From assembly GCA_026392045.1 (NCBI GenBank), contig JAPLCU010000041.1, positions 84 through 64,083 of the forward strand: a DNA stretch of 64,000 nt, in the 5' to 3' direction. Each line of letters starts with the position of its first letter. Position 1 is the stretch's first letter. This DNA comes from Armatimonadota bacterium. Its GTDB lineage: Bacteria > Armatimonadota > UBA5829. The translations under genes were made by a program, and so were the position numbers. This document shows positions 155 through 44,655 of this stretch, piece by piece. The notes beneath the pieces are model-generated. The model saw nothing but the letters and a program-made list of their open reading frames with translations. It was not told where the DNA came from and searched no databases.

Positions 155-2176
155 CTACTTTGTCGGTGTCCCCTTCGGTCCGTTCTCACCCTTTGCCCAC
201 TTCAGCGAAAAGTAAGGAAAACCGTTGGGGCCATCGTTGCTGATGAGGTTGGTTTTGGAGCCGCTGTTGCCGTAAATCTCCATCGAGTATCTCCTTTTTC
301 TGAGCATGCCTTCGCGTGGGGGCTTTGTGTCATTTGGAGAAACGGCTATCGTGCTGCCGCCATACGAAAGACCGCCGCCGCCCGTTGCCTCCAATTTGAG
401 CTCTACCCAATTCTCTTTGCTCGTGATCCGCATTTTAAGCCTGGACAGCGCTTTAGGGTCGGTGGGGAGTAAGCGCTGGTTACGGAAAGTGCGATCATGA
501 TCGTACTGTGTGAATCCGTCATTGCATTTCTTACACGCCGCTACAAGCAGCGCCGACTCGAAAAAGCTCATTGGAATCCCGGACTCCGACCTCGCCATCA
601 GCTTCTCTTCCGGGCTAAGGGAGTCATATAGAGCCCACAGCGGCTTCATCGGGCCGAAACTCGCCATCGTGAGGATCGCAAGATCTCTGTTACCTGATAT
701 CCAACCATTATATTGCTCATCTGTCAGAGTGGTGAGCGGGGTCGCATCGTCGAGGTTCACGCCTCCCTTTTCCAGCTTAGACTTCATCTGCCGGATGAGG
801 CTCACTGGTACCAGACCCGCGTGCTGATCAATCCAAGATCGTGATACCGCAACCACAAGCTTGTTATCAGCGTCCGTAAGGCAGTCTACGTCCCAACGGA
901 ATAATCTAAGCACGTCTTGGATTGTCAGTTTTTCTTGTGGAAGACTGCTGATTCGACTGCTTATTCTCTGGCTGTTGAAGTCTTCGCAGACGATGGTATA
1001 CCCGCTTGCGTCCGAAAGCGCCAGTATCACATCCGCAAGGGTCGGAAGCCCGTCCAGTTTCTCCGGGGCTTTGAGCTTAACTTTTGTCGCCAAAAACTCC
1101 TGGATCGGGTCTTTCCATTCCACCGGAGTATACTTGGTCCTGATATCGCTGCCGCCGAGCGGATCAGGCAGTGAATTACTTGTCTCCGGCAGTTTGACAT
1201 ACTCCAGTGCATCCCGGATGCTCACATTGAGGCTGTCCACAACAGCATCGCCACGTTCATTGTGAGCAGGGGAATTGACGCAGATCTGCGGCCAGATACT
1301 ATCTGATTGCTCACGCGTATAAAGGATCACCTCGCTCTGCTCTATCTCCTGTTGAGTGGCTTTACTGTTTAGAGTGTATGAGCCAGGGAAGCTGAAACCT
1401 GACTCGTGTCTCTTGCGCATTACCGCCACTAGATCAAGCAGGGCCAGCCGCACGTTTTCCGGCAAGCTTTCTCCCTGGAGAATAACCTGTTCGCCAGCTT
1501 TCAGGGAGTCTCGCGCACTGTTACCCAGAGCGCTTACAAGCCTGCCAATCGCCCGAGCATTGTTGAACTTCAAGCTCTTATCATCATCACCTGTCTCTTC
1601 AGGTCGGGATGCCAGGCTCTCCGCCGCCGCCCATTCCCTATCAAACTTCTGTCGCTTTTGAATATTCTGCGCGATCTCGTGCTCGGCCAGCGCCCTCTCC
1701 ATTCTAATGGTGCGGACGAACCGGTACTTGCGCGGACTGTCGACGGTCTTGCTTGAGGTGAGGGCAACGTGGCTCACATCGGCAATGGTTGATAGCAACT
1801 TGCCGAGTTTGATATCTTTCGCGCTGATGGTGACCGGGATATCTCGGACGCGCCAGTCGCTGTTGTTCTTGCCGCTGGCGATGGCGACGCCCGTGATCCG
1901 GCTAAGCTCGCTGGCAATATCTTGAAGCCGCCCCTGTTTGACCTGGTAGGTGACTTTCTTGCTGAGACGATCGTCAGGCCCAGATTTCGTATCGACGGGC
2001 TGAGAGGATATTGCCGTGGGTGTGTTGGGGTCCACTTCAACCTTGCCATAAGCCGATGACGGGTCTGGTTTTACGAGCATAAGAAGGCAGATTGCAGCCA
2101 AAATTAGATAACGCACTTTTGCGATTCTCCTTGCTGCCAGCATCATCATTTTAGTTGTTGTTGGAGTTCTTCTCAT
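155..2176 (-). CDS. hypothetical secreted protein (673 aa) with an N-terminal signal peptide and no recognisable domain
   Basis: Long ORF with a GGGAGGAAAGG Shine-Dalgarno upstream of the ATG at 2176. The hydrophobic N-terminus (ILAAICLLMLV) is followed by Ala-x-Ala-like cleavage context. Confidence 0.6.
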   Translation of the reverse strand: MRRTPTTTKMMMLAARRIAKVRYLILAAICLLMLVKPDPSSAYGKVEVDPNTPTAISSQPVDTKSGPDDRLSKKVTYQVKQGRLQDIASELSRITGVAIASGKNNSDWRVRDIPVTISAKDIKLGKLLSTIADVSHVALTSSKTVDSPRKYRFVRTIRMERALAEHEIAQNIQKRQKFDREWAAAESLASRPEETGDDDKSLKFNNARAIGRLVSALGNSARDSLKAGEQVILQGESLPENVRLALLDLVAVMRKRHESGFSFPGSYTLNSKATQQEIEQSEVILYTREQSDSIWPQICVNSPAHNERGDAVVDSLNVSIRDALEYVKLPETSNSLPDPLGGSDIRTKYTPVEWKDPIQEFLATKVKLKAPEKLDGLPTLADVILALSDASGYTIVCEDFNSQRISSRISSLPQEKLTIQDVLRLFRWDVDCLTDADNKLVVAVSRSWIDQHAGLVPVSLIRQMKSKLEKGGVNLDDATPLTTLTDEQYNGWISGNRDLAILTMASFGPMKPLWALYDSLSPEEKLMARSESGIPMSFFESALLVAACKKCNDGFTQYDHDRTFRNQRLLPTDPKALSRLKMRITSKENWVELKLEATGGGGLSYGGSTIAVSPNDTKPPREGMLRKRRYSMEIYGNSGSKTNLISNDGPNGFPYFSLKWAKGENGPKGTPTK

Positions 2177-2262
2177 TGTCTACCTTTCCTCCCGGGTCAG
2201 TTATACCATAGAGTTTGTCCATACTGCTAACATAATATTTGAATATGTAGCAAATCATTGAA

Positions 2263-2292
2263 TTATATCACGCACTTTGGGGGGGTGTCAAG
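2263..2292 (-). promoter_or_regulatory. sigma70-type promoter on the minus strand: TTGACA, an 18-nt spacer containing a C7/G7 homopolymer, and an extended -10 TGaTATAAT
   Basis: Reverse complement of 2261-2296 is agTCTTGACAcccccccaaagtgcgTGaTATAATtc. The G run is at 2280-2286. It lies ~85 nt upstream of the ATG of the 155..2176 gene. Confidence 0.45.
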
Positions 2293-2328
2293 ACTTGTTT
2301 TGTAGTCTTGTCTATGCAAAGCGAAATT

Positions 2329-2360
2329 GGCTGGATTGCAAATCCAGCCCCAACATTAGT
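2329..2360. repeat. family-4 motif GGCTGGATTGCAAATCCAGCC + CCAACATTAGT
   Basis: Near-identical 31-bp motif at 45772-45802 and 46868-46899 (GGGC(A/T)GGATTGCAAATCCGCCC(A/G)AAC(G/T)TAGT). Confidence 0.5.
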
Positions 2361-2468
2361 CCGAGAACGGTTTTCCCGGACTATCCAGGGAGTGGGCCGC
2401 GTAAACCCATTATGTTTTTATATGTTTTGGCACGCTTTTTGTGCCGAAAAAAAGCACAATTATCAGGC

Positions 2469-2500
2469 ATGCTTCGGGACGAAAAACAGTCCCGAAGCAT
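2469..2500. repeat. family-6 hairpin ATGCTTCGGGAC-gaaaaaca-GTCCCGAAGCAT
   Basis: Its 26-bp core is the exact reverse complement of cttcgggactgtttttcgtcccgaag at 59084-59109. Confidence 0.5.
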
Positions 2501-2605
2501 ATTAAACCGTCATTTACCGCATCTAATGAGTCTTGGATGTAGGAAGAGCTAACTTTGAAAGCTGTAGTCAGAGGCAGTTTTGGCGTGATCATTGAAGTTG
2601 ATTGT

Positions 2606-2645
2606 GCGGCAGGGGGCGGAATTGCTCCCGCCCCCTGCCGCATAG
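2606..2645. other. perfect 15-bp GC-rich inverted repeat TGCGGCAGGGGGCGG-aattgct-CCGCCCCCTGCCGCA; candidate terminator for the upstream minus-strand gene
   Basis: Perfect palindrome ~90 nt downstream of the stop at 2733. No U-tract on either strand. Confidence 0.35.
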
Positions 2646-2732
2646 GTTCCGGCGTATCGTTTTCCCACGCCGGGATCGTCCCTCGAATCAGGCTGCCACA
2701 TGGACTATCGTGATCGCCTGGTCCGCGCATGA

Positions 2733-4750
2733 CTAAGGCAATGGCACGTTAATGACAGTGTTCACCATTGTAACCGAAGCATACAAGCCCAACGCTCTGC
2801 CTTCCAACGTCGTTATTCTCACTTCGCCGGAGGTAGAGATTTCGACTCCTGCAGAAGCAATAATGGTTCCCACCATGTTAGCGCCAGCGTTGATCGTCGC
2901 TGCACTGCCGACCTGCCAATAGACGTTGTTGGGATTGCCGATGCCGTCCTTGAATATAACCTCGGCAATTAATGGGTCACTTGTGTCGCCCACGGTGAGT
3001 GATGCCCCCATCTGGAAGACCCAGACTGCATTCGGGTCACCCAAAGCGTCGAGCGTTAGAGTTCCCCCTGCCTCTATATTGAACGTGTCTCCCGCGGCTT
3101 TGTAGACGCCAGGGGCGAGGACCAGCCCACTTAGCTCGCCGGAGGCACTTGGATCAGGCCCCGTTGGGGCTAATCCTGCGAGATCGTTCCACGCTTCGAG
3201 CGAGTCGTCAAAGGCCGCCTGTGCTATCGCCATTGTGGCCAAAGTTCCTCCCACAGGAGTACCACCTGGGTGCGCCGGTGGCGGTGCATCAGTGTATATC
3301 CTCCCGGTGACCTCTCCATCAGGTGCACCGTATTCGTCTCCGGTGCTATCGAAGAATGCGACCACCAAAGTAGAAGCAGCCGTGGTTCCAATATCACCAT
3401 CGATGACGGTAAGGATCCCCTCGTTGGTTATCCCGGCACCACCCCCGAAAGCGCCGAAGGAGGCGGCCGATCCAAGGTCTCCTGGTGCTGGACCCGGCGC
3501 GAAATTGGCCGTGACCGTCTTGTCCTCGTCCATCGTGATCGTGGTCGGATTCATTGTGCCGCTCAAATCGCCGCTCCAGCCGACAAAGTGGTAGCCTGCC
3601 GCCGCCGCCGCCGTCAGCCCAATCACAGTTCCATAGTTATACGTCGGCTGATTCAGCGACTTCATCACATCCCCGTTCTCCGCAATTACCGTCAGGGTGT
3701 AGTTGTTGCCAACGATGAATGTGGCGCTGGGTCCGGCGGCAAGCGCTAAATTACCTGCCGCATCGGATGCCGTGTTCGCCGCTATCGAGATTCCCAGCGT
3801 ACCATTGCCGGTGATACTGGAAATCCTTACCGTTCTGGTTGCCGTGCCACTACCGGAAACAGCTACCGTTCCGTTGGCCGTGCCTGTCTTGTTCAGTGTG
3901 ACATTACCCGCCACAAGCGTGACAGTATTAGCGCCGCCGTACGTAATCGTATAGGTTATCGGGCCACTCCTCGTCTGCAATGCCGAGGGAGCGCCGATAC
4001 TGATTGTCGGCCTGGTGTTGTCAACGGTGAACCTGGTGCTGGGTCCGGCGGCAAGCGCTAAGTTACCAGTCGTATCGGATGCCGTGCTCGGCGCTATCGA
4101 GATCCCCAGCGTACCATTGCCGGTGATACTGGAAATCCTTACCGTTCTGGTTGCCGTGCCACTACCGGATACAGCTAACGTTCCGTTGGCCGTGCCTGTC
4201 TTGTTCAGTGTGACATTACCTGCCAGAAGCGTGACAGTATTAGCGCCGCCATACGTAATCGTATAGGTTATCGGGCCATTTCTCGTCTGCAATGCCGAGG
4301 GAGCGCCGATACTGATTGTCGGCCTGGTCACATCATACGTCACCGTATTGTCGGTGGAGGTAGATGCCTTGCTGGCATTACCCATTTGACGTCGTGCGCG
4401 ACACCGGCCGCCAAGTTCGCAATCACCGTACCACTGCCCGTCATGCCGGTGACGGCCACGTTGTATGTCTTACCGGTCCCGGTGACCGTGCGAACCAGTG
4501 TGCCGGGCGCTGTACCGGTCAGGGTGACATCGCCAGCGGCGAAGTCTTTGACCGCCTTGCTGAAGACCACGGTGAAGTTGATCGGCGACGTCCTCGTCGG
4601 GTCGGCTTGGCCGACTTTCTGATTGATGGTGACGGTGGGCTTGACGACCAATTGTGCAGGCACCATTGATGCCCATCCGACTACAGAAACGACCAGAATT
4701 AATAACGTAAGCCCTAAATATGTGGTGTATATGCGCATTTTCTTGTCCAT
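2733..4750 (-). CDS. repeat-containing surface protein with a C-terminal ice-binding-like (DUF3494-type) beta-helix domain; an apparent frameshift near 4385 splits it into ORFs 4340..4750 (signal peptide + repeat 1) and 2733..4385
   Basis: The N-terminal ORF has a signal peptide and a ~100-aa unit resembling the two near-identical tandem ~100-aa repeats in the 550-aa ORF (also visible as a DNA tandem repeat, ~3700-4000 vs ~4010-4300). The C-terminal region shows LGSAASFGAFGGGAGITNEG...GDIG, typical of the ice-binding-like family. Both frames are open over 4340-4385. Confidence 0.55.
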
Positions 4751-5446
4751 TACTTACCTCCAAATTTCATTGTCAAGCCGATGAAGTATCTGGAACCATT
4801 GCCTAAACCAACCTGGCAGGTGAGATCTGGTGTAATGGGCTGGCGAATCGTGGCGCCAAACATGCTCCCGGCAGCAATATCATCAATTATGTAGTCAAAT
4901 CCGAAAGTCGTTTTCCCAGGCGCTACAAACTCTATTCCCATCATTCCGGTGAGGTTGCTGCTTGATGCGCTTTGGTTCGGCCTCTGATAGAGCAAGCCGA
5001 CAGTAGCTCTGTATCTGTCACCTATGCAACAAAGTCTATCGCTAGCGACCAGGTATAGGTCGGTCTCTGCGGTATTGCCGCTGAGGTACATCACACCAGC
5101 CGCTATGCTAGGCGACTTCTCACTCTCATGTGCGAAAATGTACTTCGCATTGATGCCTTTGACTGCAGTGTAGTCTTGGACATTGAAGTAGCTCAGGCCG
5201 ATTTCCCCATTCGCAACCCCATAACCAAGGGTCACAACGGGGAATACAACTATCCCAACGTCAGCCACCTTGGGCCTGTCATAGGCCAACATCATCTCGA
5301 AGTTCCCTTCCGTCACGACCTCTGCCGTAGGTAAGTTCAGAATTCCCGTAGGGCCGATTGAGGAGGGTGCGCTGAATGACGCCGTTGCCATCAAAGACAC
5401 TAACGTCACCAGTCCTGCCAACAACACGTTCTTTTTCATCTGCATA
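4750..5446 (-). CDS. secreted protein with a signal peptide (possible beta-barrel/outer-membrane-like); its stop overlaps the downstream adhesin-like gene start (TAATG)
   Basis: ORF with an AAGGAG RBS 8 nt before ATG (MQMKKNVLLAGLVTLVSLMATASFSA). Alternating hydrophobic pattern. Confidence 0.5.
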
Positions 5447-22217: not shown

Positions 22218-22232
22218 CGTATAGCGCAATGC

Positions 22233-22258
22233 GGCTCAGGGGGACCTTCGCCCTCCCC
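22233..22258. repeat. family-3 unit GGCTCAGGGGGACCTTCGCCCTCCCC (reverse orientation relative to 41287-41312)
   Basis: Exact reverse complement of the 26-mer at 41287-41312. Confidence 0.55.
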
Positions 22259-36722: not shown

Positions 36723-37400
36723 ATGTCGAAAGTAAAAATGAAACGTGGATTTTCTTTGATTGAGCTGTTGGTGGTCATTGGAATTATAGCCATTTTGGCT
36801 GCGATACTTTTTCCAATGCTCACCAAAACTCGTGAGAAAAGCAAGCAAGTCAAGTGCATGAATAATGCGGCTCAGATGGGCAAGGGCTTCAAGATGTACG
36901 GCCAAGATTGGGACAACAAGTTTCCCATCAGCGCAGAGGTCAATAACGGTAAGGGCCAGTGCTTGCTCTACGATGACCTGAAAAAATACATATCCAACAA
37001 TTACAACCTGTTTATATGTCCAGCTGATACAGGCGATGCTTTGATCGGTTTGAGTAGTGCGCCCTACTGGAAGGGATATTTTGGATCAAGTTGGGCGTGG
37101 CCTAATGCTTATTCAGGTGGAAAATGGGTTTGTGGTTTCTCTCAGGATAATCCGCGGCCGTCATCCGGAACTTACAACTGGGCTCAACTTATGCCTTTAA
37201 CTAGACGCCCTGTAGTATTCGATCATCGCCCGTGGCATTGGGGTGTGAAAGGGCAGACCGTAGGTGATTGGGGTAACATCTCAGGAAAATGTAGTGTTCT
37301 CTGGTGCGATGGGCATGTGGGTATGTGTGGATACAAAACGATGTTAGCAATTATGGAGGCGGGAGGCAGCACCACTATGCCAACTGGACTTGAGTGGTAG
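36723..37400 (+). CDS. prepilin-type N-terminal cleavage/methylation domain protein of the DUF1559/H-X9-DG class
   Basis: N-terminal KRGFSLIELLVVIGIIAILAAILFP. C-terminal ...SVLWCDGHVG. AGGAGG RBS. Confidence 0.8.
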   Translation: MSKVKMKRGFSLIELLVVIGIIAILAAILFPMLTKTREKSKQVKCMNNAAQMGKGFKMYGQDWDNKFPISAEVNNGKGQCLLYDDLKKYISNNYNLFICPADTGDALIGLSSAPYWKGYFGSSWAWPNAYSGGKWVCGFSQDNPRPSSGTYNWAQLMPLTRRPVVFDHRPWHWGVKGQTVGDWGNISGKCSVLWCDGHVGMCGYKTMLAIMEAGGSTTMPTGLEW

Positions 37401-37496: not shown

Positions 37497-38417
37497 TTAC
37501 GCGCTGGCTGATATCGGCGATGGTGTCTCATCGTCAGATTCAGGCATGGTCGGTTTGCCAGGCTTACCAGAGCCCAAACGCCAAATGATAAGATAGATCA
37601 GGCTGCCTATTCCAATTAGGCCAAGTCCGACCCATCCGCTTTGCCAGTTCCACAAGAACGGGATTTTTGCTGGCCACCATTTTTCCTTCAGAAACTCGAT
37701 GTTTTGCAGCAGAATCGACATGCGGGTCATAATCGTATTGCCGAAAAATCCACCGAATAGGATCATCAATAACCATCGGCCAACTTCAGCAGTTCTCTTC
37801 ACCACAGGATTTGAGTGGTCGAATGAGAACAAGAAATACACCATTACCGTTATTACACCAACAAGAAAAATGATGTTGCTAATGGATTGCCAAAAGTCGA
37901 ATGGCACACCGCCACCCAGAAATGGCTGCCCATTAGGCCAGATTGCAGAATGCGCCCCAGAGATGAGCGGTCTGGCTGAGTCTATGATTTGAGGCACATT
38001 TGGCAGCAATTGCTGCTTGAAAATGATGCCTCCATTGGCGCCGACGGTGATGCCAATAACGATTCTTGAAAGCCACATATACTTTCTGCTGGTTTGGAAA
38101 TACCAGAGAGATCCCAAAAGCCCCAAAGACAAGAACAGGATAAACGTTCCAGGGTTATCCACGACGCACCGTATAAAAGAACCAATCCAACTGCTGCTTT
38201 TGTAGTTTGGAATTAGTCCGCAGAACTTATCCCACCACAGCGGCCCCAGAACCTGTTTCCACGTTACGATAAGAGTATATCCCGTTCCAATGCCGATGCA
38301 GGTATTGAGCACAATTCTATAGATCTTGTTGTCATTATACAGGAACGAATATATCGATAGAACAATAACTACGCTTATCCATGCCTGAAGGAGTAGTTTC
38401 ATCGATTCATCAATCAT
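37497..38417 (-). CDS. polytopic integral membrane protein (unknown function)
   Basis: Multiple TM helices. Start ATG (MIDESMK) overlaps the upstream stop (ATGATTGA). ~40% GC. Confidence 0.6.
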   Translation of the reverse strand: MIDESMKLLLQAWISVVIVLSIYSFLYNDNKIYRIVLNTCIGIGTGYTLIVTWKQVLGPLWWDKFCGLIPNYKSSSWIGSFIRCVVDNPGTFILFLSLGLLGSLWYFQTSRKYMWLSRIVIGITVGANGGIIFKQQLLPNVPQIIDSARPLISGAHSAIWPNGQPFLGGGVPFDFWQSISNIIFLVGVITVMVYFLFSFDHSNPVVKRTAEVGRWLLMILFGGFFGNTIMTRMSILLQNIEFLKEKWWPAKIPFLWNWQSGWVGLGLIGIGSLIYLIIWRLGSGKPGKPTMPESDDETPSPISASA

Positions 38418-39276
38418 TGTTGGCCTTCTTTCGTTTAGCGGCAAAATAACCAATATTGCCGAGCACAATAGCAAAAATAATGACTAAGTGCCCGTATGCC
38501 AAAGGTAGGATAAGTTTGGAACCATAGTTTTTGCGGTCTGTAATACTATTCGGGTGCAGCAATTTATCATACTCTGCCCCACCGCGAGCTCCGACCAAGA
38601 ACCCTGCAACCTGCCCGGACGGCATATATCTGTATATCGTAGTTGAGCTGATTCCGCCGCCGCCAAACACCAATTTGGTGCCATAGACCTCATGTATAAA
38701 TCCAATGTAGTCTTCAGATGGCCAGTAGTTTGTGCTGGTTAAGAGCCCAACATCATTAATGTTATTAAGATTCTTCGTGATGGGAATATCTGTGGTATAA
38801 TGTCCTTTTACGTCTTTTTCGAACTGTTTCTTAAAGTCTTTGGCAAATAGTTGCATAGCGAACGCGCCACCCTTGGTGATGCCCAGATTGACCCAGTCAA
38901 CACCATACTCTATATCTTTGAACTCTGGATGGCTCGCAATTAACTTTTTAATAATATCGTCAGTGTAGCTGGGAGCCAACGCATCGCCATCCAGAGCAAA
39001 AACCACGAACTTCTGCCTGTTTCGCAGAAGATGCTCGAAAAGGGCTTCTGTTTGTCCTTTGTTTTCACCCACAGAGCCAGGTCCCCAAGGACTGTCAACA
39101 AGCACAATCTTGTCTTTCGGAACGCTTTGCACGGCGTCATAGTAAGCCTGCGTTTCAGGCGAAACATAGACGTCAATGTCAACAGGCCGAATGAACGGTA
39201 TTGTACAGGCAATGGCGACGAAGAGATAAATCCATCTTCTGTCCATTGTCTGGAGTCTTGCGAGAAAATCTAACAT
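38410..39276 (-). CDS. bitopic membrane protein: N-terminal TM, ~220-aa soluble domain, C-terminal TM
   Basis: Hydropathy pattern only. No recognisable motif. Confidence 0.55.
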   Translation of the reverse strand: MLDFLARLQTMDRRWIYLFVAIACTIPFIRPVDIDVYVSPETQAYYDAVQSVPKDKIVLVDSPWGPGSVGENKGQTEALFEHLLRNRQKFVVFALDGDALAPSYTDDIIKKLIASHPEFKDIEYGVDWVNLGITKGGAFAMQLFAKDFKKQFEKDVKGHYTTDIPITKNLNNINDVGLLTSTNYWPSEDYIGFIHEVYGTKLVFGGGGISSTTIYRYMPSGQVAGFLVGARGGAEYDKLLHPNSITDRKNYGSKLILPLAYGHLVIIFAIVLGNIGYFAAKRKKANND

Positions 39277-39278
39277 AG

Positions 39279-40385
39279 TTATAACTCCCTATCAAAGAAT
39301 GCGCCACGCTCAAGCGAGAGCCAGTAGCGCAGACCAATTGCCATAGATGCCAACATAATTCCAAACCACATGCCGCGTTGTGAAGCTGTGTTCAAAACAA
39401 GCTGAAGCCATCTGCTTATAGCAGGCACCAAACCTGTTTGTCCAGGAATCCAACTTGTCAAATATACTCCAAATGGAATCTGTCCAAGCATAACAATCAG
39501 CGCCGAGACCATCATCAACACCGCTTCGCGAGATTTCGCTTTGAATGAGCGATATGCCGCAGAGGCCAGATAAAATGACAGAAGCGAGAATGTGGCGGAA
39601 TAGAATGCAAACTGAATATATTGGGCAACTGTATCATTCAGCAGAAGAAGAATCTTGTGGTAGTTGGTGTCAGGTTCGGCTCCATACCCAATGCCGGCAA
39701 ATATTCCAAATACAAGCCCTGCAAAGAAAAGCACACTCATATACCATTCTTTGGTTTTCTTGCGAATGGCGGATGAGTGCATTATCCAAAGACTGAACAA
39801 TGCAAAACCCCAAGCCATCGTCGCCAACACGATTAGACCGTTACTAACATCAGTCAATATGCTGGAAACGTAGGTTGTCGGCCCAATCTGAGATACAAGA
39901 TCGCCGACTAGTAAACTGCCCGGATCATCAATCTGGCTTTCCCCACCGGAGTTCTCCATCCTGAATGAAACAGTTTTCGATTTACCATTTTCCACTTTGG
40001 CGTTGATGGTCTTTGTTCCGCCGAGAATCCCAATGGTCAGCTCAGCTTTGTTTTTTCTGCAGATAATGCCTCTCTCAGAATTGTCCATTGCAATAATGCT
40101 TGTAGTTGAAAGCTCAATATCTGATGTGGCGATTCTCTTTGTTTGATCGCCTTTGATCCAATCAACCATCAGTTTGTCTGTGACAGGCATTTTGACAGTG
40201 CGTTTGAATGTTGTAAGTTCTAGCATAACATCACTGGCCATGGTATCCATATCAGTAATAGAGACAACTGACGTGACGATACCGGACGTGCCCTGTCCAG
40301 GCATAATTGGAGGCACTGCAAACTCCAAGAAGTAGTAGAGCCCAGCCACAAACGTAACTATTAAAATGAGTTTCTTTTTCCACAT
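39279..40385 (-). CDS. membrane protein with one N-terminal TM, a ~190-aa extracytoplasmic domain and five C-terminal TMs (ABC-2-permease-like topology)
   Basis: Topology inferred from hydrophobic segments. 2-nt gap to the downstream gene. Confidence 0.55.
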   Translation of the reverse strand: MWKKKLILIVTFVAGLYYFLEFAVPPIMPGQGTSGIVTSVVSITDMDTMASDVMLELTTFKRTVKMPVTDKLMVDWIKGDQTKRIATSDIELSTTSIIAMDNSERGIICRKNKAELTIGILGGTKTINAKVENGKSKTVSFRMENSGGESQIDDPGSLLVGDLVSQIGPTTYVSSILTDVSNGLIVLATMAWGFALFSLWIMHSSAIRKKTKEWYMSVLFFAGLVFGIFAGIGYGAEPDTNYHKILLLLNDTVAQYIQFAFYSATFSLLSFYLASAAYRSFKAKSREAVLMMVSALIVMLGQIPFGVYLTSWIPGQTGLVPAISRWLQLVLNTASQRGMWFGIMLASMAIGLRYWLSLERGAFFDREL

Positions 40386-40390
40386 GGTTG

Positions 40391-41167
40391 CTACTTCCCA
40401 AATATATTGTAGAGTATGGCCAGACCGGATGTCGAACCAAACGTCACAAGTAATGTTCCAGCTATGATGACCAGAAGAATAGCTATCTTGCAGTAGTCTT
40501 GGCCCACAATGCTGCCAAGCATCGTAGGTTCTCGCGTCAGGTAAGCGCCTGCGGCGTATAATTCTTCACCAATAACGGTATAATCGCAGGTTGCGATGAA
40601 GAATGGTATCTGATTCGGTTCTGCGCATCCCGCTATTTGAACAGCGCCTACATGTTGTCCTGGTTCGGTATAAAGCAGCGCCGTAAAGTCGTAGGAGCCG
40701 AAATAGAAGTGGGAAGCCGTTTTTTCGTCTTTCATTATCTGGGCAGAAGCCAGAGCAGTTTGGTCGCCTTGAGCCGCGAGAAATCGAATGTCCTTTGCAT
40801 CAAACAGCTCAGGACGCCCCTCAGCAGCGTATGCTCCTTTTACAACGTCCTCTGCAACAGGTATAACGACAGGAACACATGTGAATACAATAACACGGGC
40901 TCCCATCTTTGCGGCGGTTTGAGCTACATGGCCTAGAACTCCGATAGCCGCAAGGGTCGGCGCCGCAGTAAAGTCAGCATTGCCCGTGTTGAATAGCATC
41001 GGGCGCCCCATTTCGGTTGCTCGACCTACAGCCTCGTCAATCTCCTTCAGACCGGCAATTCGGCGGATATATATCTCCTTGCCGGATCGTGCTGAAAAGA
41101 TTTTGTAGAGGATGATGGCCGCGATCGCCATGATAATTATGAAGATTTGTGAGTTTGCGTGTTGCAT
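40391..41167 (-). CDS. membrane-anchored protein (N- and C-terminal TM, central soluble domain)
   Basis: ORF with hydrophobic termini. 5-nt gap to the next gene. Confidence 0.55.
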   Translation of the reverse strand: MQHANSQIFIIIMAIAAIILYKIFSARSGKEIYIRRIAGLKEIDEAVGRATEMGRPMLFNTGNADFTAAPTLAAIGVLGHVAQTAAKMGARVIVFTCVPVVIPVAEDVVKGAYAAEGRPELFDAKDIRFLAAQGDQTALASAQIMKDEKTASHFYFGSYDFTALLYTEPGQHVGAVQIAGCAEPNQIPFFIATCDYTVIGEELYAAGAYLTREPTMLGSIVGQDYCKIAILLVIIAGTLLVTFGSTSGLAILYNIFGK

Positions 41168-41286
41168 ATAATCTCCAGTCCCCTCAAGTTAATATTTTGG
41201 AACTATGCGCCAGATACAACTCATCAATAATAACGCAGATTTTCCCTTAGCGCAAATATATATTCAAATTCACTCTCGGTGAGTGA

Positions 41287-41358
41287 GGGGAGGGCGAAGG
41301 TCCCCCTGAGCCGTTTTCCTTCGCAGCTACAAGGCTCGGCGGGAGCCTCGCCCTCCCC
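41287..41358. repeat. family-3 inverted pair (GGGGAGGGCGAAGGTCCCCCTGAGCC ... GGCTCGGCGGGAGCCTCGCCCTCCCC) forming a long hairpin in the 192-bp gap inside a co-directional gene string
   Basis: Two inverted copies of the 26-mer separated by 20 nt. A third copy is at 22233-22258. Confidence 0.6.
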
Positions 41359-41359
41359 G

Positions 41360-42481
41360 TTATTGTGCAATGATCTCCACGTTTGCGCGTGGAACGATGA
41401 CATCCTGTCCGTCAGCCAGTTTAGCTTCAAGAACCCTGACAGTTGAACCCGACGGCACCACAACCGGCTCAGGAGGCAGACCTGTCACAGTGCCGAGTTG
41501 ACCAAAATAAGGCTCGCGTATGCATCGAATGTTTGCGCCGATATCAAGATATTGCACAGGGTCAGCAACTTCATCATCCGACACGGCAATATCCAACGGC
41601 ACAATAATCTCTGGTCGAATAACACCTGCTCTGATCTGAGTTGCGCCGTTGATTGAAGCGCGCTTTCCCTCAAGACTCTTGAGCAGATTGAATGTCCTAT
41701 CGGCCATTCTGATAGACCCGAATCCCTCAGTAATAATAAGGGAAGTGCAAATATCTTCCTGACCGGTAATCGCTACGCCGATGTCATATCCGAGGAAGTC
41801 GATAAGCTCGCGGTCGATGATAGCGCCTGCCACAACACCCGCCGCCTTGACTGAAATAGCCTTTTTGAGCGCTGCGCCGGATACGTTTGAGCCGCCGACA
41901 ATGACTTTTCCTTCCATAGAAGCATCGATCATAGAATCGGTAAGCGGCTGATCCGGTCCAGAGACCAGAATTGCGATTTCGCCGATCTGTTCTCCGCCTA
42001 CTCCAAAGATTCCCTGGATCATTGCAGCCTCAGTCTCAACAACTACGCCTTCGTCAGGTATAACCTCAGAGACTTTGCCGCGCACATATCCTTTAACCTC
42101 GATAGGTGTCGAGGGAAGACGTATGCCGATATTGCCCGTCGTGTCTGAAATGAGCTCGATTGTGCCGTTGATCGGTGATTTGACCTCGTTGCGCATGAGC
42201 CCAAAGAATGACTTTGTCTCGGCAATTATCTGACTGGCAGTAACAACATCACCCACACCGACTCTAAGCGCATTATGAAGACCAGCGGAGTCAACACCCA
42301 AAATCTGGGCCGCTCTTACGGTTTGCATAACTCCCGGAATCTGTGTGTGTGCAACAACGGTATCCGGCTCCACCATATCACCGCTATTAACGAGCACTTG
42401 CCCCTTGAGCGGCAATCGTCTGAACTTTCTAACGAGTGTTCTGGGGCTGACTTTGAGCCCTGGTGTATAAGCAGTTCCCAT
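41360..42481 (-). CDS. hypothetical soluble protein (373 aa), translationally coupled to the upstream MutL-like ATPase
   Basis: ATG is 2 nt after the upstream TAA, with GGTGGGAGG inside the upstream gene end. No family recognised by eye. Confidence 0.65.
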   Translation of the reverse strand: MGTAYTPGLKVSPRTLVRKFRRLPLKGQVLVNSGDMVEPDTVVAHTQIPGVMQTVRAAQILGVDSAGLHNALRVGVGDVVTASQIIAETKSFFGLMRNEVKSPINGTIELISDTTGNIGIRLPSTPIEVKGYVRGKVSEVIPDEGVVVETEAAMIQGIFGVGGEQIGEIAILVSGPDQPLTDSMIDASMEGKVIVGGSNVSGAALKKAISVKAAGVVAGAIIDRELIDFLGYDIGVAITGQEDICTSLIITEGFGSIRMADRTFNLLKSLEGKRASINGATQIRAGVIRPEIIVPLDIAVSDDEVADPVQYLDIGANIRCIREPYFGQLGTVTGLPPEPVVVPSGSTVRVLEAKLADGQDVIVPRANVEIIAQ

Positions 42482-42483
42482 AA

Positions 42484-44268
42484 TTAGCCTCCCACCTCTA
42501 GTCCAAGCGAGCTATGCCACTCCTGGAGTTTTGAAATTCTGAGTTTCTTATCAGTTGGAAGTTGCATCGGCCTTCCGCGTGTGTCAATCATCAGACCGAC
42601 CGTGCCGCCCTCAACTTTGGCAGTAACCGGCTTGCCTTTGCCCGCGCCCATATCAAAGTTTCTTCCCGGCCTGATAGTGACCTCTTTGGTCTCGCCAAGA
42701 CCCAGCGGAATCACAGTCAGCGTGCCGCATTTGAATGCCTGATCGCTGCCGTCGATTGTGATTGTGCAGGCAGCGTCTCCAGCCTTGCCATTTCCAACAG
42801 GCGCGATAACATGCCCAAACTTGATCAAGCAGTCTCGTTCAAAGACTTGCGCGGCGGCTTCAGGGTGAACAACCGATAGCACGCCGAGCTGAGGCATCAT
42901 GAAGATAGAGTCCTTAGCCAGCATCGTGATGCCCTCAGGCTGATACGCATCCATCATCATATACGCTGTCTCTGCGGCTCTCGGAGCGTGAGATAATACA
43001 CCGCCGCTTCCGATAATCATGTCCAGGTTCATCATCTTAACCAGAGTCTGGCCGGTTTCGGACTGATCCATAATCTCGCCGATGGTTCTTACTTGTTGAA
43101 CGCCCTTTAACGATCTTGCAAGTGACTTATGATGATCGAAAGCAAGCCTCAAAGCCTCGCGAGAGACAGCCTGCTCAATTCGTAGATCATCCAGCGTATG
43201 CGGGATCGTAGTTGGGCGGATCATCTTGTTCCTGAGCCTGTTTCTGAGGTCTGTTTCGTCTGAATCGAATGGCACCCATCGCTGAATATTGGCAATACCC
43301 GCTTCGGTGAGCACGTTGCAGATCGAGTAGCTCATACCGAGATTTGCGCTGACCGTTCTTGTGAAAGTGCCGTCAAAGACTGAGAAAACGTCGGTCGTTG
43401 CGCCGCCGATATCAACTGCCAGCACATTCATACTGAACTGTGCGGCAATCGTCTCGATGATTCTGCCGACCGCATTTGGGGTAGACATAATCCCCGAATC
43501 GGTCCATGAAGAAAGCTTTCCGTAACCCGGAGCCTGCTGCATGACGTGTTGGAGGAAAAGCTCATGGATCGCCGCTCTTGCCGGGCCGAGGTTTTCGGCC
43601 TCAAGGGAAGGCCGAAGGTTATCGACAACTTTCAGGTCGACCTTCTCCTTGAGAATATCCATGAACGGCTTGCGCGCTTCCTTGTTGCCTGCGAAGATGA
43701 CGGGTAATTTCATACCCAGGCCGAGCCTCGGTTTCGGGTCTGCCGCCAAAAGCATTTCGGCAATTTCAGCAAGATGCTTGACGGTGCCGCCATCCGTGCC
43801 GCCTGATGTCAGGATCATATCCGGGCGCAGTTCTCGGATTCGGCGGACTTTCTCATAATCTTTACGTCCATCATCAACGGCAATAACGTCAATAATGATA
43901 GCTCCAGCGCCTAGAGCGGCCCTTTGCGCACTTTCGGCGCTCATTGATTTTACAACGCCAGCCACCGTCATCTGCAATCCGCCGCCGGCGCTTGAAGTCG
44001 ACAGATATAGATCAACACCTGTCTTTTCTCCGCTCGCTGGACGCATGATCAAACCGCCATCGTCAATAATCTTTCTTCCGGACAGTTCCTCGATTTCTCT
44101 AACGGCATTCAAGACGCCCACGGTAACATCATCGAATGGAGCTTCAACAGTAGTTGGAGCTTCACCGCGTACAGATAAGCGATATTCGCCGTCGATTTTT
44201 TCTATGAGGATAGCCTTGGTGGTAGTACTTCCGCAATCGGTTGCAAGTATAATATTTATCTCTGCCAA
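42484..44268 (-). CDS. glutamate mutase subunit L (MutL/GlmL)-like ASKHA-fold ATPase with a ~130-aa C-terminal extension
   Basis: N-terminal ILATDCGSTTTKAIL phosphate-1 motif characteristic of GlmL-like actin-fold ATPases. No adjacent mutS/mutE. Confidence 0.7.
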   Translation of the reverse strand: MAEINIILATDCGSTTTKAILIEKIDGEYRLSVRGEAPTTVEAPFDDVTVGVLNAVREIEELSGRKIIDDGGLIMRPASGEKTGVDLYLSTSSAGGGLQMTVAGVVKSMSAESAQRAALGAGAIIIDVIAVDDGRKDYEKVRRIRELRPDMILTSGGTDGGTVKHLAEIAEMLLAADPKPRLGLGMKLPVIFAGNKEARKPFMDILKEKVDLKVVDNLRPSLEAENLGPARAAIHELFLQHVMQQAPGYGKLSSWTDSGIMSTPNAVGRIIETIAAQFSMNVLAVDIGGATTDVFSVFDGTFTRTVSANLGMSYSICNVLTEAGIANIQRWVPFDSDETDLRNRLRNKMIRPTTIPHTLDDLRIEQAVSREALRLAFDHHKSLARSLKGVQQVRTIGEIMDQSETGQTLVKMMNLDMIIGSGGVLSHAPRAAETAYMMMDAYQPEGITMLAKDSIFMMPQLGVLSVVHPEAAAQVFERDCLIKFGHVIAPVGNGKAGDAACTITIDGSDQAFKCGTLTVIPLGLGETKEVTIRPGRNFDMGAGKGKPVTAKVEGGTVGLMIDTRGRPMQLPTDKKLRISKLQEWHSSLGLEVGG

Positions 44269-44655
44269 TCCACATCACCATTTTTGTGGAGCCATAATCA
44301 GCCCCACCACTATGTAAAGATATTAGCTCAAAAAGAGCTGTGTCAGATATGTAATTATGTTCAGCCTATATTCTACATCATAGAAGCGCTTTGATGCTAG
44401 ACATTTTTTTGCGAAGTTTCAATCTGAGCTCAGAAAATGTATGGTTCAAGAAGCAGATTTGACAGCCGCAATTTACTTATTAGGTTTTTGCAGGGCCAAT
44501 TCCTCTTTTTGGAAAGAGTAAAGTTATTTTGATGCGAGATTCGGCAAATCCAGTCACTCACCGAAAGTGTCCTCTTACCTCTTACATCCTCCCTTCCAAC
44601 TCCACCCTTGGATATGATACAATGCAATGTCAAATTGAGAGCATAGGTGATATAA

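Follow-up and report, generated by a model that had tools for sequence, protein, structure and literature searches.

Layout of the locus

Two neighbouring minus-strand genes were analysed in the window, by which is meant the whole stretch of 64,000 nt of DNA under study. The first gene (42484..44268, TTG start) encodes a 594-aa protein, here called the ATPase, and was identified as an open reading frame and by its match to Pfam MutL (PF13941). The second (41360..42481, ATG start) encodes a soluble protein of 373 aa, here called the partner, which belongs to no Pfam or NCBIfam family. An earlier sequence-only reading had placed both reading frames at these positions, and they were confirmed by the list of open reading frames and by the NCBI annotation, which holds the same two products as MCX6344552.1 ("glutamate mutase L", the ATPase) and MCX6344551.1 ("hypothetical protein", the partner). 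Searches with the partner family returned >8000 matches at 90% clustering and 2453 clusters at 50% identity, a size from which both frames were taken to be real genes and not chance.

The junction between the two genes (42479..42492, minus strand) was read directly from the sequence as GGAGG (42492-42488), the ATPase stop codon TAA (42486-42484), a 2-nt spacer TT and the partner ATG (42481-42479), in agreement with the earlier placement of this ATG 2 nt past the stop. The GGAGG lies 6 nt 5' of the ATG. Junctions in many relatives are also short or overlapping. The arrangement fits translational coupling but is not proof of it. Upstream, a 387-nt intergenic region (44269..44655) separates the ATPase gene from a divergent gene beyond 44655, which from inspection by eye we take to encode a YchF-type GTPase. 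This intergenic region presumably holds the promoter; the only promoter matches in it, at 44422-44394 and 44346-44317 of the minus strand, are at consensus level, and promoter and terminator scans were at background level. An Rfam search over 36.5-45 kb gave nothing above noise.

Four membrane-protein genes follow 3' of the partner gene on the same strand, spaced by 5 nt, 2 nt and then an overlap, and hydrophobic segments were seen in all four products. The 192-nt gap before them (41168-41359), earlier described as repeat-filled, instead holds one long imperfect inverted repeat, a GC-rich hairpin (41287..41358, minus strand) lying directly 3' of the partner stop codon. Folding of the 195-nt stretch 41168-41362 gave -77.9 kcal/mol (z = -4.8). 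The closest relative (locus L089) has a different GC-rich hairpin in the same place, and only the Shine-Dalgarno/start region is conserved in sequence. No T-run follows the hairpin and no Rfam family matches it; it is possibly an intra-operon attenuator or RNA-stability element, and may set the relative expression of the two gene blocks that it separates.

The first membrane gene (40391..41167, minus strand) encodes a 258-aa protein with an N-terminal transmembrane segment, a highly conserved domain of ~190 aa and a C-terminal transmembrane segment. It was assigned to DUF6754 (PF20539; 276.4 bits against a cut-off of 27, model positions 10-252 of 257) and its conserved domain, which includes invariant residues, reads GRATEMGRP ... 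IQIAGT...QIPFF.A.CDY..IGEE. Its conserved domain is predicted to be cytoplasmic, since some homologues bear a signal peptide and an FN3-like N-terminus. In the PDB nothing significant was found for it, the only similarity being 31 residues resembling MtnA (E 0.19). The second gene (39279..40385, minus strand) encodes mem368, a polytopic protein of 368 aa with hydrophobic segments, whose conserved core is the C-terminal ~200 aa; its N-terminal ~170 aa are an insertion missing from most homologues. The third (38410..39276, minus strand) encodes mem288, a bitopic protein of 288 aa with a transmembrane segment at each end and a domain of ~215 aa between them, predicted by the positive-inside rule to be extracytoplasmic. 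The fourth (37497..38474, minus strand) encodes mem325, a polytopic protein of 325 aa when taken as the longest open reading frame; the likelier start is an ATG at 38417, which overlaps the upstream stop by 8 nt. In locus L088 the mem325 and mem288 families are called as a single gene. PDB searches with mem368, mem288 and mem325 returned no match, and Pfam member scans gave no consistent family.

The ATPase and its partner protein

The ATPase matched all 450 positions of the Pfam MutL model with 416.1 bits (E 2e-124; gathering cut-off 27 bits), residues 7-480 forming the ASKHA/MutL core (42829..44250, minus strand). Its N-terminus, ATDCGSTTTKA, fits the phosphate-binding pattern DxGSTxTK that had been read there. 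This and two further ASKHA motifs, VDIGGATTDV and IIGSGGVLSH, are each at least 95% conserved among 41 homologues, so that the phosphate-1 (DxGxT), phosphate-2 (DxGG.T.D) and adenosine (GSGG) motifs are all present. The 594-aa protein is thus a predicted ASKHA-fold ATPase of the MutL/GlmL family, as the sequence-only reading had it; a PDB sequence/profile search returned no solved relative.

GlmL/MutL, the accessory protein of the B12-dependent glutamate/methylaspartate mutase, shares with the ATPase the Pfam family, the ASKHA fold and the DxGSTxTK phosphate-1 motif, and the full GlmL model can be aligned to ATPase residues 8-478. The score against the GlmL equivalog model NF040745 was nevertheless 224.6 bits (cut-off 475), that against the glmL_fam subfamily model TIGR01319 168.7 bits (cut-off 204.05), and that against Or-4, a GlmL-related protein of ornithine degradation (NF040744), 205.3 bits (cut-off 600). 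The ATPase further differs from GlmL in its additional C-terminal domain and in not being flanked by glmS/glmE; it also has a 373-aa partner of its own and recurs with a membrane module, both foreign to the GlmL context. The earlier remark that no B12 mutase lies nearby was borne out: glmS and glmE are absent around the pair in the window, no B12-binding or mutase family recurred among the neighbours of 165 related loci (85 + 80), and no mutase was found in Pfam-annotated related gene contexts. Identity with GlmL was rejected on these scores and neighbourhoods, by which the public name "glutamate mutase L" is judged an over-annotation. Thousands of database proteins of this MutL subfamily are named "glutamate mutase L" or "methylaspartate mutase", and glutamate fermentation inferred from them is likely wrong, because they fail the GlmL tests and are not found with a mutase.

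Beyond the core lies a subfamily-specific extension (42487..42828, minus strand; residues 481-594) which is outside all MutL/GlmL models, the NCBIfam GlmL and Or-4 alignments likewise stopping at residue 478. The sequence-only reading had recognised this extension and put its length at ~130 aa; it is 114 aa, since the Pfam MutL match ends at residue 480. The extension has a conserved core, GG.VG..D.RGRP..LP, is kept in homologues of all phyla sampled and is found wherever a partner gene adjoins the ATPase gene. It had no Pfam match, a Pfam member scan gave no consistent family, and a PDB sequence/profile search gave nothing significant. When its profile was run against a set of 5.8 billion proteins, the matches were mostly short fragments; those with a precomputed Pfam domain all carry PF13941, and the many without one are all <180 aa.

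The structure of the partner was taken from an alignment-based model (pLDDT 90; single-sequence AlphaFold2 gave pLDDT 33). The model shows three domains, all on the minus strand: an N-terminal beta region with a barrel-sandwich hybrid of the lipoyl/biotinyl-like, NqrA/RnfC N-terminal type (41969..42451, ~residues 11-171), a central swivelling beta/beta/alpha domain (41594..41944, ~residues 180-296; boundaries approximate for both) and a C-terminal KOW/SH3-like barrel (41363..41536, ~residues 316-373). The central domain contains the invariant motifs TEGFG and ATQ.RAG..RPE, and an invariant PRAN.E forms the very end of the protein. The sequence-only reading could place the protein in no family, and this stands: Pfam gave only sub-threshold barrel-sandwich-hybrid matches (RnfC_N 18.7 bits, cut-off 25.6), the PDB gave no whole-chain match and nothing significant in a sequence/profile search, and no well-characterised enzyme family was matched. 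The position aligned to the carrier lysine (K90 of AETKSF) is K, R, V, Q, H or S in 37 homologues. With no conserved lysine, a lipoyl/biotinyl carrier role was rejected; with no conserved histidine, so was a phosphohistidine relay as in the swivelling domain of PEP-utilising enzymes. An NqrA/RnfC-like subunit was also rejected. In the membrane redox pumps, NqrA and RnfC are subunits attached peripherally on the cytoplasmic side, and they have a similar N-terminal barrel-sandwich hybrid, but only ~100 partner residues, those of that domain, match them; the Rossmann-like, FMN or Fe-S parts are missing, the membrane proteins at this locus lack Rnf/Nqr similarity, and the system was not placed with Nqr/Rnf.

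The swivelling domain recalls the diol and glycerol dehydratase reactivases (DdrAB/GdrAB). The pair could be a GlmL/DdrAB-like reactivase or chaperone for a distantly encoded B12-dependent or other radical enzyme, in which the swivelling domain, present in cis in DdrA, would come in trans from the partner. In DdrA this domain is inserted in the ATPase chain, whereas here it is on a separate protein (C-terminal in fusions), flanked by the barrel-sandwich hybrid and KOW-like domains, and the swivelling-domain match was no better than those to Enzyme I, pyruvate kinase or RraA. The neighbourhoods examined contained no DdrB-like subunit, dehydratase or B12 enzyme, and the pair was not assigned to that group. 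The partner, which had been suggested as the client of such a reactivase, is not recognisable as an enzyme, its three domains being of the adaptor or swinging type. Given also the scores below all three GlmL-type cut-offs, the lack of a recurrent mutase and the fact that the sole recurrent neighbours are membrane proteins, we regard a reactivase as improbable.

The ATPase subunits of hydantoinase A, 5-oxoprolinase and the acetone and acetophenone carboxylases (PF01968, PF05378) form a related ASKHA branch, and PMC5214803 describes these systems as multi-subunit ATP-dependent enzymes. Sub-threshold Hydantoinase_A and Hydant_A_N matches were present in the ATPase and in the fusion proteins described below, that of the ATPase to Hydantoinase_A (PF01968) scoring 20.6 bits over one short stretch (cut-off 22.9). 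The pair could accordingly be a soluble enzyme of this type, with the ASKHA protein using ATP to activate a small substrate, the partner providing catalysis or a carrier, and the membrane module either importing the substrate (metabolic trapping) or being unrelated. The partner has 21 invariant residues, many of them polar (R21, Q156, E252, T281, Q282, R284, R289, E291, R365, N367, E369), and a Gly-rich QGIFGVGGE loop, and the sequences are conserved at the level of an enzyme, all of which would suit this reading. Against it, the homologue alignment contains no invariant His, Cys or Lys, profile searches gave no Hydantoinase_B match, and the fold of the partner, in which no catalytic domain is recognisable, is unrelated to the Hydantoinase_B-type catalytic subunit of those systems.

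Recurrence of the pair and the membrane module

The pair is conserved across many bacterial phyla and in genomes labelled archaeal. Among 68 partner-anchored loci with enough upstream sequence, 31 had a same-strand MutL gene immediately upstream and 10 more had one elsewhere within the locus; the remaining 27 had no MutL within 8 kb. Two fusion proteins of 995 and 1003 aa, on unrelated contigs, carry MutL and partner in one frame. The survey of gene neighbourhoods thus found the two genes conserved as neighbours in related genomes, and the proposal of an obligate two-component module is upheld: conserved adjacency, two independent gene fusions and a shared operon context identify the ATPase and partner, at the level of sequence, as one functional unit.

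At loci in archaeal-labelled MAGs the ATPase is 54-56% and the partner 51% identical to the window proteins, and with ~50-55% identity between Armatimonadota and such MAGs the pair ranks with the more tightly constrained of the functionally uncharacterised proteins. Very high conservation together with many invariant polar partner residues would equally fit a soluble enzyme. The conservation is also comparable to that of MreB-like proteins and, with the ASKHA fold and the association with membrane proteins, would be in keeping with a cytomotive actin-like filament formed by the ATPase, with the partner as its adaptor to the membrane. Soluble ASKHA proteins do work with bitopic or polytopic membrane partners in PilM-PilN, FtsA and MreB-RodZ. 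Those systems polymerise or scaffold, and none has a partner of the barrel-sandwich-hybrid, swivel and KOW kind; the ATPase belongs to a different ASKHA clade, and no sequence relation to them was detected. Occurrence of the pair as a fusion suggests a 1:1 stoichiometry, a better fit to an enzyme complex, and PMC5597319 groups the MutL/hydantoinase clade with the enzymes of the superfamily that do not polymerise. A filament is therefore considered very improbable.

The sequence-only reading had the gene string run on into four membrane proteins. The genes are there, and they proved to be more than a mere continuation, being the main clue to function. Of 84 loci anchored on the partner, 17 have at least one of them next to the pair, and 11 have the complete set of four. 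The linked loci belong to Armatimonadota, Eisenbacteria, Zixibacteria, Fermentibacteria/Aegiribacteria, Clostridia and MAGs labelled Bathyarchaeia and Korarchaeota. In seven or more phylum-level groups the pair recurs with DUF6754, mem368, mem288, mem325 and a further two small proteins, named c2 and c8. The module may be upstream of the pair, downstream or on the opposite strand; in locus L086 the order is c2-[fusion]-DUF6754-mem368-mem288. Two loci (L071 and L049) have one pair followed by two tandem membrane modules, as expected of a shared energising unit.

The survey was also anchored in reverse, on DUF6754, in 80 metagenome loci. All 16 of these that had at least 5 kb on both sides contained the four membrane genes together, and the only other recurrent families were c2 (21 loci), c8 (11), partner (12) and MutL (9), with no NTPase besides MutL. 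Across phyla and in both anchor directions, the pair has no recurrent neighbours other than the four membrane families, c2 and c8. The four membrane genes are thus a unit, and the sequence survey shows the units of pair and module recurring together across phyla. Proteins c2 and c8 are small membrane-associated proteins, without a Pfam family, which often join the module and are absent from this window: tblastn with c2 and c8 gave nothing significant there, a small-ORF search was also empty, and 44269..44655 contains no c2/c8-like small ORF.

The linkage is partial, as the figure of 12 partner-containing loci among 80 indicates. One complete Armatimonadetes chromosome of 5.37 Mb, the sole genome checked genome-wide, carries the pair at position 0.59 Mb and, at 4.42 Mb, the cluster c8-c2-DUF6754x2-mem368-mem288-mem325; genomes in which the two are unlinked can therefore hold both. 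The frequent separation of the pair from membrane genes would also suit the hydantoinase-like enzyme, as would the glycine-cleavage genes found directly upstream of the pair in 7-8 loci. These genes are restricted to related FCB-group lineages, however, and no metabolic gene recurs across phyla; with the composition of the partner, this leads us to consider such an enzyme unlikely.

Proposed role of the pair

With about even confidence, we infer that the pair acts in the cytoplasm as the soluble, energy-supplying component of a larger membrane system, conserved and so far undescribed. In this proposal, the ASKHA protein of the MutL/GlmL-hydantoinase clade would bind and hydrolyse ATP in its cleft, and the ATP cycle would drive domain movements of its dedicated barrel-sandwich-hybrid, swivel and KOW partner. 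These movements would be passed to the conserved cytoplasmic domain of DUF6754, and the module would thereby power transport or processing of some substrate at the membrane. DUF6754, the polytopic mem368 and mem325, and the bitopic mem288 with its outward-facing domain would make up the membrane part, in many cases together with c2 and c8. The mechanism would be without precedent, as to our knowledge no ASKHA ATPase energises a transporter. By analogy only, the arrangement resembles that of ECF/ABC-type transporters, in which a single soluble ATPase unit works with one or more membrane modules, whether or not these are linked to it in the genome; the present system has duplicate modules in tandem behind one pair, and a bitopic protein whose domain faces outward. 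It has no P-loop NTPase, and no component has detectable homology to theirs.

Two further functions were considered for the locus. An anti-phage defence system was rejected, as PADLOC returned no match for any of the six proteins. A function specific to the cell wall is unlikely given that monoderm as well as diderm bacteria have the system, as do MAGs labelled archaeal. No paper on this system emerged from literature searches on DUF6754/PF20539, PF13941 and "glutamate mutase L".

More tentatively, and rather less likely than not, the pair, the DUF6754 module, c2 and c8 may together represent an unrecognised class of membrane machine, such as a transporter or processing complex, powered by an ASKHA ATPase of the GlmL/hydantoinase clade, and not by a P-loop NTPase, through a barrel-sandwich-hybrid, swivel and KOW transducer, and distributed across many uncultivated bacterial phyla and archaea. 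The pair is the only NTPase recurrently linked to the four-protein module, and Pfam has no entry for three of the four families in that module. Should the link prove functional, ATP would be coupled to a membrane process in a new way, and a function could be given to DUF6754 as well as to five or more unnamed families, which are widespread in candidate phyla, namely WOR-3, Zixibacteria, Eisenbacteria, Fermentibacteria and Poribacteria and in MAGs labelled Bathyarchaeia.

The ATPase-partner gene pair

The ATPase gene (42484..44268, minus strand, 594 aa, TTG start) and the partner gene (41360..42481, minus strand, 373 aa, ATG start) were found at the coordinates and lengths given in the sequence-only reading. 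The claimed 2-nt spacing was likewise confirmed, the ATPase stop codon TAA being followed by two bases and the partner ATG, and GGAGG was read from the sequence 6 nt 5' of that ATG. NCBI annotation of the source contig (64.2 kb, Armatimonadetes MAG) calls the same two products, naming the ATPase "glutamate mutase L" and the partner "hypothetical protein". Beyond a 192-nt gap after the partner lie four more genes on the same strand, their successive junctions being gaps of 5 nt and 2 nt and then an overlap. Hydrophobic segments were detected in all four of their products and, by the same check, in neither the ATPase nor the partner. Read as its longest ORF, the last membrane gene overlaps the preceding gene by 65 nt (38410-38474); an internal ATG at 38417 would cut the overlap to 8 nt, so the TTG annotated as its start probably lies too far 5'. 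On the opposite strand past the membrane block, the gene at 36723-37400 (+) has a prepilin-type N-terminus, GFSLIELLVVIGIIAILAAILFP, as read from its translation.

Among 185,579 species genomes scanned there were at least 555 carriers, including Armatimonadota, Bacillota, WOR-3, Zixibacteria, Eisenbacteria, Fermentibacteria/Aegiribacteria, Ignavibacteria, Poribacteria and MAGs labelled Bathyarchaeia and Korarchaeota; fragments labelled Thermococci and Thermoplasmata were also found. The window's ATPase is 54-56% and its partner 51% identical to those of loci labelled archaeal, which points to strong constraint. Adjacency was counted in 68 loci having at least 2 kb 5' of the partner. The extended MutL, i.e. 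the ATPase with its C-terminal extension, was immediately upstream on the same strand in 31 of the 68, elsewhere in the locus with a gene inserted between in 10, and absent within 8 kb in 27 (mostly Fimbriimonadia, Chthonomonadales and WOR-3). In two unrelated contigs MutL and partner are fused in frame, giving one protein of 995 or 1003 aa. The two genes are conserved as neighbours and, in line with the obligate two-component module suggested in the sequence-only reading, ATPase and partner almost certainly form one functional unit. At some loci (L058 5204-7999, L072 5140-7998, L017 5130-8000; WOR-3 and some Armatimonadia) MutL is absent from the 8 kb 5' of the partner, and the genes directly preceding the partner are glycan-related: either one for a TPR-repeat-containing, TMEM260-like O-mannosyltransferase, or one for a Wzy_C O-antigen-ligase-like protein and then a methyltransferase gene. 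NAGPA-domain genes were seen 3' of the pair in several Armatimonadota.

Family and domain assignments of the pair

By sequence, the ATPase clearly belongs to Pfam MutL (PF13941; 416 bits, full model, residues 7-480), in agreement with its original assignment, and the ASKHA nucleotide motifs ATDCGSTTTKA, VDIGGATTDV and IIGSGGVLSH are intact and at least 95% conserved among 41 homologues. GlmL identity was ruled out by NCBI curated models, all three scoring below cut-off: the GlmL equivalog (224.6 bits, cut-off 475), ornithine-pathway Or-4 (205, cut-off 600) and the GlmL subfamily (168.7, cut-off 204). Alignments to the GlmL-type models all end at residue 478. The last 114 residues form a conserved extension (motif GG.VG..D.RGRP..LP) with no relative in Pfam or PDB; in an extension profile search, PF13941 was present in every match having a precomputed Pfam domain, many other matches being short fragments without a domain call. 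Sequence search found no solved structure for the ATPase family. In practical terms, proteins of the extended-MutL subfamily are widely named "glutamate mutase L" or "methylaspartate mutase", and these names are over-annotations.

The partner had been described as having no assignable family, and this stood: matches to barrel-sandwich-hybrid (BSH) domains were all sub-threshold. Its own family is sizeable and homogeneous: there are more than 8000 matches, almost all of 370-375 aa, and 2453 clusters at 50% identity. In the predicted structure (pLDDT 90), the N-terminal domain is a BSH (NqrA 8.5, RnfC 7.9, biotin carrier 8.1), the central domain a swivelling beta/beta/alpha domain (Enzyme I, pyruvate kinase C-terminal domain and PEP-synthase-type phosphotransferase at 8.7; lower, RraA 8.5, aconitase X small subunit 7.8 and diol dehydratase reactivase alpha 7.3) and the C-terminal domain a KOW/SH3-like barrel (Spt5 and NusG, ~8.5). 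There are 21 invariant residues, with motifs QGIFGVGGE, TEGFG, ATQ.RAG..RPE and a terminal PRAN.E; these include no His, Cys or Lys, and both a biotin/lipoate carrier role and a phosphohistidine relay role are therefore excluded. A ~450-aa variant (P0200, P0214, P0216, P0229, P0246, P0267) has an additional N-terminal BSH domain, and this extra copy scores above threshold for Pfam NQRA_N, RnfC_N and Biotin_lipoyl.

The pair was rated a GlmL-clade ASKHA two-component ATPase. GlmL/MutL is the closest family to the ATPase, its role as glutamate mutase chaperone being only sketched in the literature (PMC4682846); in mechanism, the DdrAB reactivase comes nearest, being an ASKHA ATPase that has a swivelling domain. 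The BSH-swivel-KOW partner and the membrane module occur in neither, and membership tests for GlmL and DdrAB both failed. A GlmL/DdrAB-type reactivase with its client encoded at a distance would suit the ATPase family and the swivelling domain, but is improbable given the failed GlmL thresholds and the lack of a recurrent B12 enzyme across 165 neighbourhoods, which extends the earlier remark that no B12 mutase is nearby. An actin-like filament with the partner as adaptor is highly improbable, as the MutL/hydantoinase clade of ASKHA proteins is regarded as non-polymerising (PMC5597319). The enzyme-like conservation and the invariant polar residues of the partner could instead point to a soluble hydantoinase-like ATP-dependent enzyme, the membrane module being an importer or unrelated; this is unlikely, since the partner folds are adaptor-type and there is no catalytic domain.

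The membrane module and its linkage to the pair

Neighbourhoods were analyzed by all-against-all ORF clustering of 85 partner-anchored loci. Recurrent with the pair were the window's four membrane families, DUF6754 (PF20539), mem368, mem288 and mem325, and two small protein families absent from the window, c2 and c8. The c2 proteins are ~130 aa long and have a charged tail along with a single hydrophobic stretch, their gene usually lying immediately 5' of MutL; c8 proteins (~150 aa) combine a soluble domain with two TM segments. The pair is beside all four membrane genes in 11 loci and beside at least one in 17, in at least 7 phylum-level groups, with the module upstream, downstream or on the opposite strand. 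One fusion gene lies in the order c2-[fusion]-DUF6754-mem368-mem288 (L086). With DUF6754 in metagenome contigs as the reverse anchor (80 loci), the four membrane proteins proved to be a single unit, their genes occurring together in all 16 of the loci that had 5 kb or more on both flanks. Apart from them, recurrence was limited to c2 (21/80), partner (12/80), c8 (11/80) and MutL (9/80); no other NTPase and no B12 enzyme recurred in these 80 loci. Pair and module are linked far above chance, since linkage was seen in 15-20% of loci, in both directions and with gene order conserved, and a 20-kb window is ~0.5% of a 4-Mb genome. Two loci (L071 9525-16311, L049 9340-15896) have a single MutL-partner pair followed by two tandem DUF6754-mem368-mem288-mem325 modules. 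In the one genome checked for this, a complete 5.37-Mb Armatimonadetes chromosome, the pair (0.59 Mb) is far from c8-c2-DUF6754x2-mem368-mem288-mem325 (4.42 Mb), so genomes in which the two are unlinked can still carry both. The pair probably works with the membrane module.

In Fermentibacteria/Aegiribacteria, Eisenbacteria and other MAGs, gcvT-gcvH-gcvPA-gcvPB lies directly 5' of c8-c2-MutL-partner (L032, L049, L054, L067; about 700-5400), and parts of this glycine cleavage cluster are similarly placed in L044, L053, L061 and L078; the placement could hint at function or be a matter of lineage synteny. In a complete Armatimonadetes chromosome, the mem288 and mem325 families are called as one 497-aa gene (L088 9804-11297), a fusion inside the module if not a gene-calling artefact.

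No Pfam family was found for mem368, mem288, mem325, c2 or c8, and no PDB relative for the first three; literature searches found no paper on DUF6754 or on the pair/membrane-module system. DUF6754 has a highly conserved domain of ~190 aa (GRATEMGRP ... IQIAGT...PFF..CDY..IGEE). Many homologues have a signal peptide and FN3-like domain ahead of the first TM, which would put the conserved domain on the cytoplasmic side, within possible reach of the pair. Many DUF6754 proteins outside the window's lineage are ~400-450 aa (L044, L049, L054, L061, L067, L071, L082 and others); the window's 258-aa protein is without the signal peptide and FN3-like extracellular domain. Its residues ~167-197 (~40577-40669) have local similarity to a segment (NKVGTYQLA...PFYVAAP) of methylthioribose-1-phosphate isomerase/eIF2B-like proteins (E 0.19, not significant), a hint that the cytoplasmic domain may be Rossmann-like. 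The window's mem368 (39279-40385, minus) has an N-terminal TM and a ~150-aa beta-rich insertion (residues ~1-170), missing from most homologues (~208 aa).

In the proposed mechanism, the ASKHA protein, with motifs intact, would hydrolyse ATP, and the three mobile-type partner domains would relay its nucleotide state to the membrane complex, with c2 and the cytoplasmic domain of DUF6754 as the probable route. The ATP cycle would then power transport or processing of some substrate; a bitopic 288-aa protein with an outward-facing domain plus two polytopic proteins would be a transporter-like layout. That the pair is the soluble ATPase unit of a membrane system is the best explanation overall, at about even chances. 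The whole assembly is put forward only tentatively as a categorically new membrane machine, and a transport-type mechanism is possible but doubtful.

The spacer hairpin

The 192-nt spacer contains a long GC-rich hairpin immediately 3' of the partner stop (41287-41358), and the 195-nt stretch around it has a folding z of -4.8. The closest relative locus, L089, has a different GC-rich hairpin in the same place, with conservation between the two spacers limited to the SD/start region of the DUF6754 gene. No T-run was found downstream and no Rfam family matched. The hairpin could plausibly act as an intra-operon attenuator or stabiliser that sets how much soluble product is made relative to membrane product. 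One hairpin arm is a 27-nt string, GGGGAGGGCGAAGGTCCCCCTGAGCCG, found identically at 41287-41313 (+) and, 19 kb away, at 22232-22258 (-) just 3' of another ORF; the string may represent a small, dispersed REP-like palindrome.
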